Shown here: positions 32,469-52,012 of the stretch, in pieces
How the letters are laid out: each line of letters opens with the position of its first letter
Position numbering within the stretch: the stretch's first letter is position 1
Assembly (NCBI GenBank): GCA_018920305.1
Contig: JAHLMO010000003.1
Span: 1 to 62,116, forward strand
Length of the DNA stretch: 62,116 bases
Source: Candidatus Aenigmatarchaeota archaeon
GTDB lineage: Archaea; Aenigmatarchaeota; Aenigmatarchaeia; CG10238-14; SpSt-28
Direction: 5' to 3'
Notes under the pieces: model-generated
Databases searched by the model: none
Told to the model about the DNA's origin: nothing
What the model saw: only the letters and a program-made list of their open reading frames with translations
Position numbers and translations under genes: made by a program

Positions 32469-32780
32469 GCATATTCAAATTATGATTTATTATTTCTTAA
32501 TATAGAATGAATGTATTTCCAATCTCTTTTGTTAATTCCAAAAATCTCTATTTTTCCAGATTGTTTTCCATCAATCGTAAAGTAAAGAATAGTTCCAGAA
32601 ATTTATACAATAAATCTTATAGTTATCATCAAGAGAAATAGAGCTAACTTAATCAAAATCATAGAATAATTTTAAAAACTAATATTTAATTTTTTATAGC
32701 CTGTTTATTTCACTTTCCCTAAAACAAAATAAAATCTGATGTCTTTGTTCTACTTAGATTTAAATAAAAATTGAATAAAA

Positions 32781-32881
32781 TGCCGGGGGTGGGATTTGAA
32801 CCCACGACCTCCGCGTTTCTTATCATCGATTCAAAGCTCATTAAATATGAGCGCGGCGTTCTACCACTAAACTACCCCGGC
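32781..32881 (-). tRNA. tRNA with CAT anticodon (elongator Met, or Ile2 if modified), 29-nt intron at 37/38 (32817-32845)
   Basis: Reverse complement reads GCCGGGG-TA-GTTT-AGTGGTA-GAAC-G-CCGCG-CTCATA[TTTAATGAGCTTTGAATCGATGATAAGAA]A-CGCGG-AGGTC-GTGGG-TTCAAAT-CCCAC-CCCCGGC-A. The intron segment ATGAGC pairs with the anticodon region GCTCAT, as in a BHB helix. Confidence 0.85.
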
Positions 32882-32916
32882 ATAAATAAAATAAAAACTA
32901 AATAATATTCAAAAAA

Positions 32917-38528: not shown

Positions 38529-38567
38529 ATAAATTAATATCGAAAAATATAAAAATTTTTTATTATT

Positions 38568-38666
38568 GGGGCCGTAGTCTAGCCAGGCAGGACGGCGGGC
38601 TCCAGAAATGGAGCACCGATAAAATGAGGAAACCCGTTAACCTGGGTTCAAATCCCAGCGGCCCCA
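38568..38666 (+). tRNA. tRNA-Trp (anticodon CCA) with 26-nt intron at 37/38 (38606-38631)
   Basis: GGGGCCG-TA-GTCT-AGCCAGGCA-GGAC-G-GCGGG-CTCCAG[AAATGGAGCACCGATAAAATGAGGAA]A-CCCGT-TAAC-CTGGG-TTCAAAT-CCCAG-CGGCCCC-A. The intron segment TGGAG pairs with CTCCA. Confidence 0.85.
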
Positions 38667-38783
38667 TCATGATTCTATTACATCTACAAAGATATTTACA
38701 ATAGCTATGGAAAAAATTTAAAAGAAAAGAGGCAGAATACTTAAGTGACCTTCTATTACCAAAACAACTAACAAATAAATGAT

Positions 38784-39659: not shown

Positions 39660-40637
39660 ATGATCGAAATCGATGGTAGCTATTTAGAAGGTGGTGGTCA
39701 AATTTTAAGAACTTCAATAGCTTTATCTTGCATTCTTAAAAAACCTTTTAGAATTTATAATATTAGAAAAAATAGACCGCAACCAGGATTGAAAGCTCAG
39801 CACTTGACTGGAGCAAAATTTGCAGCTAAATTATTAAATGCAGATGTTAAAGGATTATTTATCGGAAGTACTGAAGTCGAATTTATTCCAAAAGAAGAAA
39901 ATATTCCAAATTTCGAAGAAATTAATATTGGAACTGCTGGTAGCATTTCTCTGTTTTTGCAAACTATATACCCAATAATAGCTTTTTTATCAAATAAAAA
40001 AGTCAAACTAAGAATAATTGGTGGTACAAGCGTATTACATGCACCAACAATAGATTATATAGATTTAGTTAAGTTTGAAAACCTAAAATTTTTAGGTATA
40101 GAAAAACCAGAAATTAACATAATAAAACATGGGTTTTATCCAAAAGGTGGAGGAATAGTTGAAATAGAAATCTATCCAATAAAAAAATTAAATGGTGTAG
40201 AAATGATCGAAAAAAAGAATTTTATAAAGTATGTAGCAAGAATTTCTGCGTTTGAAGATGAAAAAAGAATAAGAGAAGAAGCTGAAGTTATAAAAAATGA
40301 ATTAAAAGAAGTTGAATTAAATATAAGGAATGAAAAAACATTAAGTAAAGGTTTTTCTGTTACTATTGCATCTTATTATGAAAATTGCATTTTAGGAAGC
40401 GATAGTTTAGAAAGTTCAAAGATTGCCATCAACAATTTAAAAAAGACTGAAAATTCTAATGCATGTTTAGATAAGTATATGGCAGATCAAATTTTAATTT
40501 ATTTGGCACTATGTGAAGAAAAGTCTATAATAAAGGTTGAAGAAATTACAAGTCATACACTTACAAATATCCATACTATAGAAAAGTTTTTAGGAAAAAT
40601 TTTTAGAGTTAAAGATAACATTATAGAGAAGGTTTAA
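39660..40637 (+). CDS. rtcA: RNA 3'-terminal phosphate cyclase
   Basis: MIEIDGSYLEGGGQILRTSIALSCILKKPFRIYNIR...PGLKAQHL is the RtcA N-terminal signature. The size fits. Confidence 0.88.
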   Translation: MIEIDGSYLEGGGQILRTSIALSCILKKPFRIYNIRKNRPQPGLKAQHLTGAKFAAKLLNADVKGLFIGSTEVEFIPKEENIPNFEEINIGTAGSISLFLQTIYPIIAFLSNKKVKLRIIGGTSVLHAPTIDYIDLVKFENLKFLGIEKPEINIIKHGFYPKGGGIVEIEIYPIKKLNGVEMIEKKNFIKYVARISAFEDEKRIREEAEVIKNELKEVELNIRNEKTLSKGFSVTIASYYENCILGSDSLESSKIAINNLKKTENSNACLDKYMADQILIYLALCEEKSIIKVEEITSHTLTNIHTIEKFLGKIFRVKDNIIEKV

Positions 40638-40673: not shown

Positions 40674-40812
40674 CGCCGGGGGTGGGATTTGAACCCACGC
40701 GGGCTTAGAGCCCACCGGCTTTCTCTTATAACAAAATCATCATTATTTTCAGCTACCCCAGAGCTTATCATTTAACTCGAGGCCGGCGCCATATCCGCTA
40801 GGCGACCCCGGC
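40674..40812 (-). tRNA. tRNA-Ser (anticodon CGA, class II long variable arm) with 55-nt intron at 37/38 (40721-40775)
   Basis: Reverse complement reads GCCGGGG-TC-GCC-TAGCGGATAT-GGC-G-CCGGC-CTCGAG[55 nt]A-GCCGG-TGGGCTCTAAGCCCGC-GTGGG-TTCAAAT-CCCAC-CCCCGGC-G. Confidence 0.8.
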
Positions 40813-40844: not shown

Positions 40845-40899
40845 TTTATGAAGAATGCCGCCGCATCTGAATAATGATGAAAAGGAGTACTTCTGATTA
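40845..40899 (+). ncRNA. C/D box sRNA (2'-O-methylation guide)
   Basis: ATGAAGA (C, 40848-54) - 12 nt ATGCCGCCGCAT - CTGA (D', 40867-70) - ATA - ATGATGA (C', 40874-80) - 12 nt AAAGGAGTACTT - CTGA (D, 40893-96). Box order and both 12-nt spacers are canonical for archaeal sRNAs. It is a GC-rich island in an intergenic gap. Confidence 0.65.
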
Positions 40900-43554: not shown

Positions 43555-43677
43555 GCGGGGGTCGCCTAGCCTGGCCAAGGGCGTCGGGCTTAAGATAAAT
43601 AAAATCTTAAGCTTTGAATAAATGATAAGAAACCCGATGGCGTAGAGCCGTCGTGGGTTCAAATCCCACCCCCCGCA
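43555..43677 (+). tRNA. tRNA-Leu (anticodon TAA, class II) with 37-nt intron at 37/38 (43595-43631)
   Basis: GCGGGGG-TC-GCC-TAGCCTGGCCAAG-GGC-G-TCGGG-CTTAAG[ATAAATAAAATCTTAAGCTTTGAATAAATGATAAGAA]A-CCCGA-TGGCGTAGAGCCGTC-GTGGG-TTCAAAT-CCCAC-CCCCCGC-A. Confidence 0.85.
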
Positions 43678-51923: not shown

Positions 51924-52012
51924 ATTTATGAATGAAGAAACGACGGTCAACAGAGATGATGAAGAAAAACTATTTATCAGATGTTATTAATAATTTTTAG
52001 TTCTTATAATTT

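Follow-up and report, generated by a model that had tools for sequence, protein, structure and literature searches.

The window analysed here is the whole 62,116-nt stretch of contig JAHLMO010000003.1 (assembly GCA_018920305.1), and it belongs to a hot-spring DPANN archaeon of the Aenigmatarchaeota with a genome of 553,587 bp in 19 contigs at 25% GC (G000 below). Intron-containing tRNAs were called by ARAGORN with introns allowed; its default mode missed every one of them. The minus strand carries an intron-bearing tRNA-Ser(CGA) gene, which is the only Ser(CGA) gene that ARAGORN finds in the 554-kb genome with introns allowed, so its intron must be produced. As the first-pass annotation had noticed, a stand-alone C/D sRNA (40848-40896, plus strand) lies 35 nt from the 5' end of this tRNA on the other strand. 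The features of the locus are as follows:

40674-40812, minus strand: tRNA-Ser(CGA) gene with intron (Rfam tRNA, 43.2 bits; ARAGORN Ser(cga) i(37,55))
40721-40775, minus strand: 55-nt intron at the canonical 37/38 site, predicted box C/D guide RNA (family A)
40765-40771, minus strand: C box variant AUGAUAA, G6 changed to A, GA at positions 3-4 kept
40753-40764, minus strand: D' guide, 12 nt, complementary to G000 23S rRNA 2536-2546
40749-40752, minus strand: D' box CUGA (CUGA in 24 of 26 distinct homologous introns)
40744-40748, minus strand: D'/C' linker, 5 nt, loop of the internal kink-loop (3-7 nt, variable in sequence in homologues)
40737-40743, minus strand: canonical C' box AUGAUGA (RUGAUGA in 21 of 26 homologues)
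40728-40736, minus strand: 9-nt spacer, decayed remnant of a D guide, unalignable within the genus
40724-40727 (intron nt 49-52), minus strand: degenerate D box AAGA; homologous columns are CUGA or CAGA in relatives, GA kept
40721-40725, minus strand: intron 3' end GAGAA; G-5, A-4 and G-3 pair with C34, U33 and C32
40848-40896, plus strand: stand-alone canonical C/D sRNA (one mismatch in the box scan; sub-threshold Rfam sR2/sR5/sR12)

On the other side of the tRNA gene, an RtcA gene (RNA 3'-terminal phosphate cyclase; Pfam RTC, 246 bits; window 39660-40637, plus strand) ends 37 nt from the tRNA 3' end, which may be coincidence. RtcA makes the cyclic-phosphate ends that the splicing ligase RtcB uses.

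The splice sites lie at 40775/40776 and 40720/40721, where they had been placed before. The resulting mature anticodon loop, CUCGAGA, fits the CU-NGA-GA pattern of the intron-less tRNA-Ser(GGA) loop, which fixes G37 and A38 as the exon ends. Pairing of the terminal GAGAA with the anticodon loop forms the central helix of a bulge-helix-bulge motif, in which the last two A residues and A38 make up the 3' bulge. Covariation agrees with this placement: in 42 of the 45 tRNA-Ser introns collected from relatives the pairs 32:-3, 33:-4 and 34:-5 are Watson-Crick, and 34:-5 changes together with the anticodon (C:G 25, U:A 17, G:C 1, two exceptions). Position 35:-6 is mostly G.A, and the motif is therefore a relaxed bulge-helix-bulge (3 bp plus G.A). 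The central splice helix also draws on the GA of the D box, which makes the splice fold and a C/D kink-turn mutually exclusive. In the minimum free energy fold of the naked pre-tRNA, the D' guide is paired with the anticodon loop.

The minus-strand sequence of the intron is exactly as it had been read, with the boxes in the expected succession of C, D', C' and D-like, canonical internal boxes (D' CUGA, C' AUGAUGA) and degenerate terminal ones (AUGAUAA, AAGA), and at 55 nt it is indeed longer than the four other tRNA introns of the window (26-37 nt). The internal CUGA, the 5-nt linker and AUGAUGA (40737-40752) have the form of an archaeal C/D sRNA kink-loop. The terminal boxes depart from the consensus by one mismatch (C) and two mismatches (D), both keeping the GA for sheared pairs, and none of the four boxes has lost the GA dinucleotide that a kink-turn requires. 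AUGAUAA aligns with AUGAAGA, AUGAUGA and AUGAGGA of relatives, with UGA invariant in 13 sequences, and we accepted it as a box in G000 because it also serves as the C' box of one stand-alone sRNA and of three other introns in this genome. The D box needed correction. The first-pass annotation had assigned it to the terminal AGAA, which is off by three bases: homology with canonical relatives points to AAGA upstream, and the last GAA belongs to the splice motif, so that AGAA is splice-motif sequence. The D' guide spacer is exactly 12 nt long, and the C'-to-D spacer measures 9 nt here, 8-12 nt in the genus and 12 nt in most relatives; a 9-nt spacing instead of about 12 may impair symmetric RNP assembly.

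Both strands of the whole 554-kb genome were scanned for C, D', C' and D boxes at archaeal spacings under relaxed limits, giving five candidates, among them the intron with three box mismatches in total. Across 20 locally shuffled genomes, a hit with three or fewer mismatches occurred once (about 0.05 per genome), so that the arrangement is rarely expected by chance. With Rfam, no C/D family matched the intron strand even at E values of up to 10.

Homologues of the intron are widespread in the order. In a DNA search of 60 relatives, the six other genomes of the genus all gave full-length matches that include the intron, and other families gave partial ones; once extracted, the tRNA-Ser(CGA) introns of families f2, f3 and f7 proved to contain full C/D sRNAs. 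Thirteen homologues were used to build a sequence model restricted to the intron (R1), which scored the G000 intron at 45.4 bits (E 3.8e-12) and matched 32 of 118 genomes of the order in five families; without G000, the matches were distributed as 7/18 in f1, 11/70 in f2, 2/3 in f3, 10/23 in f5 and 1/1 in f7. All 30 best R1 hits fell inside a tRNA-Ser intron at 37/38, every one in Ser(CGA) except for one in Ser(UGA). The 12-nt D' guide occurs in 23 of 26 distinct homologous introns. The D box of these 26 copies is CAGA (10), CUGA (7), AAGA (6), CGGA (2) or UAGA (1), and AUGAUAA and AAGA are limited to the genus of G000; outside it, the C box is AUGAAGA, AUGAUGA or AUGAGGA and the D box CAGA, CUGA or CGGA.

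The first-pass annotation had made conservation of the boxes in orthologous introns a test of its reading. Among the seven genomes of the genus, identity is 0.89-0.90 in the boxes and the D' guide (0.89 in the guide), 0.53 in the linker and 0.43 in the second spacer, and most of the 26 distinct homologues have canonical boxes, so this expectation was borne out. Judged from sequence comparison, the intron thus has the architecture, the homologues and the selective conservation of a C/D guide RNA.

The target of the first guide had been predicted as an exact complement and had not been found among the RNAs of the window. The genome has no exact complement of the D' guide apart from the antisense of the gene itself, but a 23S rRNA match appears once two G-U pairs are allowed. 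The D' guide forms 11 contiguous pairs (9 Watson-Crick and 2 G-U) with 23S positions 2536-2546, and C2540 stands opposite the fifth nucleotide upstream of D', in methylation register. By alignment to E. coli MG1655 rrlH, 2540 corresponds to 2441 and 2550 to A2451, which places the predicted target C2540 (E. coli 2441) ten bases before the peptidyl-transferase A2451. The target rRNA is encoded on another contig than the intron.

In G000 alone the match between guide and 23S rRNA is marginal (P about 0.04 against shuffled guides), and the case is carried by comparison across genomes. The own guide of each of six genomes was scored at every homologous 23S position. The site at 2540 reached a sum of 52.5 out of 60, with the next best site at 39, and 0 of 300 joint permutations reached 52.5, none exceeding 48.5; individually, the guide of each genome ranks this site first or nearly first. 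A compensatory change was also seen: the genus combines C at 23S 2541 (E. coli 2442) with G at guide position 6, and the other genomes have U and A at these two places. The guide-target pattern holds in three additional f5 genomes. Pairs could be checked in nine intron-carrying genomes, many metagenome-assembled genomes being without rRNA genes. Guide position 4, adjacent to the target pair, is mismatched in two genomes, and position 8 is mismatched in two. A competing site at 23S 2108 scores equally in G000 and was rejected, as it is unmatched by the guides of other families. An archaeal C/D guide is expected to form about nine or more pairs with the target opposite the fifth nucleotide upstream of the box; the D' guide does so with its 11 pairs, supported across six to nine genomes, and the sequence evidence supports a conserved D' guide aimed at 23S rRNA in trans, not at the host tRNA.

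The same nucleotide is matched elsewhere by the guides of free-standing sRNAs. Those of Methanopyrus kandleri sR16 and Ignicoccus hospitalis sR425 pair with this 23S stretch in the same register (Dennis 2015, PMC4644070 supplement), and both sRNAs are marked in the corresponding block of the authors' alignment (PMC4644070 supplement). Like the Ser(CGA) guide, theirs have GGGGUA and one further base immediately 5' of the box and place the C at E. coli 2441 at position 5; unlike it, they come from free-standing genes with canonical boxes. In two relatives, hundreds of bases are inserted in 23S domain V near the guide targets (loci L044/L045 in G025 and L047 in G028). They are probably rRNA introns; their positions are between the targets of the D and D' guides and immediately after the GGGAUAAUGGG motif.

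The second guide fared differently. What had been described as a second 12-nt guide is a decayed 9-nt spacer, and tested against rRNA in both registers it gave no significant match (P 0.28-0.5). An AU-rich match of 8 bp at 23S 1912 was discarded, as it is not kept in the 98%-identical relative G005. Other families have a 12-nt D guide whose 23S match lies about 26 nt upstream of the D' target; in three genomes it amounts to 10 pairs. The 23S sequence of G000 differs at this site and its spacer is without a significant match, which indicates a single-guide sRNA in the genus. With the D box shifted and the second guide demoted, the observation made in the first-pass annotation is confirmed and its interpretation supported.

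A C/D sRNA is known from the intron of euryarchaeal pre-tRNA-Trp, as in Haloferax volcanii and Pyrococcus sR50 (Clouet d'Orval 2001 and Singh 2004, summarised in PMC4090602 and PMC7994747), and a review of 2014 called tRNA-Trp a 'unique example' of a tRNA intron encoding a modification guide (PMC4090602). In both systems a bulge-helix-bulge intron at 37/38 houses a complete C/D guide and, once excised, can (or here would) act in trans; the splice fold competes with the guide RNP for nucleotides. The tRNA-Trp guide, however, targets C34/U39 of its host, whereas the Ser(CGA) intron shares the location but not this targeting and is directed to 23S rRNA; in the genus it also has one surviving guide and non-canonical terminal boxes. 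The first-pass annotation was right to name tRNA-Trp as a precedent, but a further, non-Trp precedent exists in Nanoarchaeum equitans, where the 66-nt intron of elongator tRNA-Met gives rise to a stable RNA that is abundant in RNA-seq and for which no target was predicted (Randau 2012, PMC3491384). That intron resembles ours in its DPANN origin, its non-Trp host and its C/D-like boxes; it differs in an anticodon-complementary stretch next to CUGA, which makes it self-directed, as in the short introns of G000 described below, and not a guide to rRNA. Full-text literature searches turned up no C/D guide described for a tRNA-Ser intron, in line with the first-pass annotation, and the combination of a tRNA-Ser host with an rRNA target appears to be undescribed in the literature searched. 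Eukaryotic intron-hosted C/D snoRNAs are comparable in that a guide is freed from the intron of a host gene and acts in trans on rRNA; they differ from the present case, with its tRNA host, in being released by spliceosome, debranching and exonucleases instead of a splicing endonuclease, and we regard the parallel as an analogy, not as demonstrated common origin.

Considering these results, we propose that the intron is a box C/D methylation-guide RNA hosted in a pre-tRNA, a reading to which we give a probability of roughly 77% from the sequence data. In the model, the intron would be transcribed together with tRNA-Ser(CGA), excised by the splicing endonuclease at the relaxed bulge-helix-bulge motif and probably circularised by RtcB. 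L7Ae, Nop5 and fibrillarin would then bind at the canonical D'/C' kink-loop and the weakened C/D pair, and the D' guide would pair with 23S rRNA (E. coli 2437-2447) to direct 2'-O-methylation of C2441. Within the genus it would act with one guide, the second having decayed. From this arrangement we infer that the intron is excised as a stable RNA, closed into a circle, assembled into an RNP and used for methylation. The genome encodes RtcB, and genes for fibrillarin (270 bits) and Nop5 (152 bits) are adjacent on contig C9. A single open frame of 398 aa with two endonuclease-domain matches, both of catalytic type (contig C4:8699-9190, plus strand), represents the splicing endonuclease. Enzymes fused in this way are reported to have a broad substrate range in other DPANN archaea, and the architecture is in keeping with the relaxed splice motifs of G000.

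The erosion of the terminal boxes raises the question of whether the genus is losing the function of a dual-guide ancestor and its intron has ceased to direct methylation, with what remains conserved by pre-tRNA folding or by too little elapsed time. In the genus of G000 only, the C box has lost G6 and the D box is down to AAGA, the D spacer is 8-12 nt and unalignable, one member (G006) has weakened D' (AUGA) and C' boxes as well, and the fold of lowest free energy ties up the guide with the anticodon loop. Such a relic is nevertheless improbable in our view. Identity has stayed near 0.9 in the D' guide and in the D', C' and C boxes, next to spacers that are randomised, which speaks for selection and not for lack of time; the kink-turn GA is kept in four boxes, AUGAUAA is used as a C' box elsewhere in G000, and other lineages have not maintained the pairing between guide and anticodon loop.

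That pairing bears on another reading, in which the D' guide would methylate C32 of its own tRNA-Ser(CGA), instead of rRNA or besides it. The G000 guide does pair with pre-tRNA nt 30-35 with C32 opposite guide position 5, CUCG is common to the 23S site and the anticodon loop, and seven other introns of G000 carry self-directed guides, though with nt 34 in register. In the Ser(CGA) introns, by contrast, the nt-34 register gives no match, just 4 contiguous pairs (32-35) persist in most lineages (26 introns), and nt 31 changes from C to G or A without the guide following, whereas the rRNA pairing extends over 9-11 pairs and covaries. C32 was therefore rejected as a self-target, its 4-6 pairs not being maintained across the 26 introns, and we consider a guide acting in cis still less probable than a relic. 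It is more doubtful by far that there is no guide at all and that box-like words arose by chance or as a by-product of an AT-rich intron forming its splice motif: a genome of 25% GC makes UGA-rich words common and the splice motif dictates the terminal AGAA/GAGAA, but the pattern almost never occurs in shuffled genomes, the element is retained in five families, in every case with boxes and guide, and guide and rRNA covary. An rRNA-directed C/D guide hosted by the tRNA-Ser(CGA) intron remains the reading that we prefer.

The tRNA-Ser(UGA) gene of G000 (contig C16:215-364, minus strand) holds a 64-nt intron, paralogous to that of Ser(CGA), that is a second intron-hosted C/D guide of the same build. 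Its conserved guide core is perfectly complementary to 16S rRNA 1364-1372 (E. coli 1406-1414), with A1408 in register, and compensatory changes are found in relatives whose 16S rRNA differs at 1409 and 1414; guide/target pairs were checkable in seven genomes. The C box of this intron starts at the splice site, so that its first purine in the precursor is G37 of the exon, and in the circularised intron the last A would restore the first base of the C box. Free-standing N. equitans sRNA13 has a D' guide predicted on 16S A1408 and a D guide on the 16S 3' end (PMC4644070). Both Ser(UGA) guides are common to this sRNA, in the same order, and the likeness concerns the Ser(UGA) family, not the Ser(CGA) intron; one sRNA family can thus be intron-hosted or free-standing. 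The second Ser(UGA) guide targets the CCUCC end of 16S rRNA, and the genus of G000 lacks both that 16S sequence and the guide. In the genus, the 16S 3' end (contig C15, locus L001, minus strand, about 1490-1512) reads GGAUCAC followed by UCAGC or UUAAU and is without the CCUCC anti-Shine-Dalgarno sequence, which relatives G029 and G048 have kept; the intron guide to CCUCC has decayed in step with its loss.

Taken order-wide, tRNA-Ser introns might be inherited hosts of rRNA methylation guides (for 23S C2441, 16S A1408 and the 16S 3' end), with guides moving between introns and free-standing loci, the need for the guides keeping the introns in place and circularisation closing the weak terminal boxes; for this wider proposal we see the chances as evenly balanced. 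If true, it would be a prokaryotic counterpart of the intronic snoRNA arrangement. The introns of tRNA-Trp and of N. equitans tRNA-Met relate to their own tRNA, whereas the Ser(CGA) guide would aim at rRNA near the peptidyl-transferase centre. Guide function would be a reason for introns to persist in genomes of about 0.5 Mb, and C/D guides could switch between intron-hosted and free-standing genes. With boxes that range from canonical to eroded and with either two guides or one, the introns form a natural series on which the minimal needs of an archaeal C/D RNP could be tested, and annotation pipelines that skip tRNA introns would miss part of the guide repertoire.

Other introns of the genome were also inspected. 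The 70-nt intron of the tRNA-Tyr(GUA) gene (contig C4:1518-1659, minus strand) contains a GC-rich hairpin and, close to its 3' end, two UGAU words; no guide was recognisable in it. Seven introns of 26-37 nt occur in the genes for tRNA-Met(CAU), Trp(CCA), Leu(UAA), Leu(CAA), Gln(UUG), Lys(UUU) and Glu(UUC), at the following loci:

32780-32882, minus strand: short-intron tRNA locus in the window
38567-38668, plus strand: short-intron tRNA locus in the window
43555-43677, plus strand: short-intron tRNA locus in the window
C9:14951-15068: short-intron tRNA locus elsewhere in the genome
C9:116104-116209: short-intron tRNA locus elsewhere in the genome
C12:33296-33403: short-intron tRNA locus elsewhere in the genome
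C15:21066-21168: short-intron tRNA locus elsewhere in the genome

Each short intron contains a stretch complementary to its own anticodon loop, followed by YYGA, 3-5 nt and AUGAxxA. The wobble nucleotide 34 always stands opposite the fifth base upstream of the D'-like box, within 6-10 contiguous pairs, and by this pattern the seven introns look like minimal self-directed half C/D guides for Nm34.

Free-standing C/D sRNAs seem to number only about four in the whole genome by the box scan. Besides the sRNA at 40848-40896, there are three unannotated candidates:

51932-51981, plus strand: C/D sRNA candidate in the window
C9:132264-132312, plus strand: C/D sRNA candidate
C2:5260-5309, minus strand: C/D sRNA candidate

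These three show 10-pair rRNA matches at 23S 2036, at 16S 489 and 361, and at 16S 742. The stand-alone sRNA at 40848-40896 is divergent from the tRNA-Ser gene, and its best rRNA matches reach 8-8.5 pairs. Its D guide shares a 9-nt core with the D guide of the sRNA in the tRNA-Ser(GGA) intron of relative G021 and resembles the D guide of N. equitans sRNA14; these likenesses hint that guides move between tRNA-Ser introns and free-standing loci.
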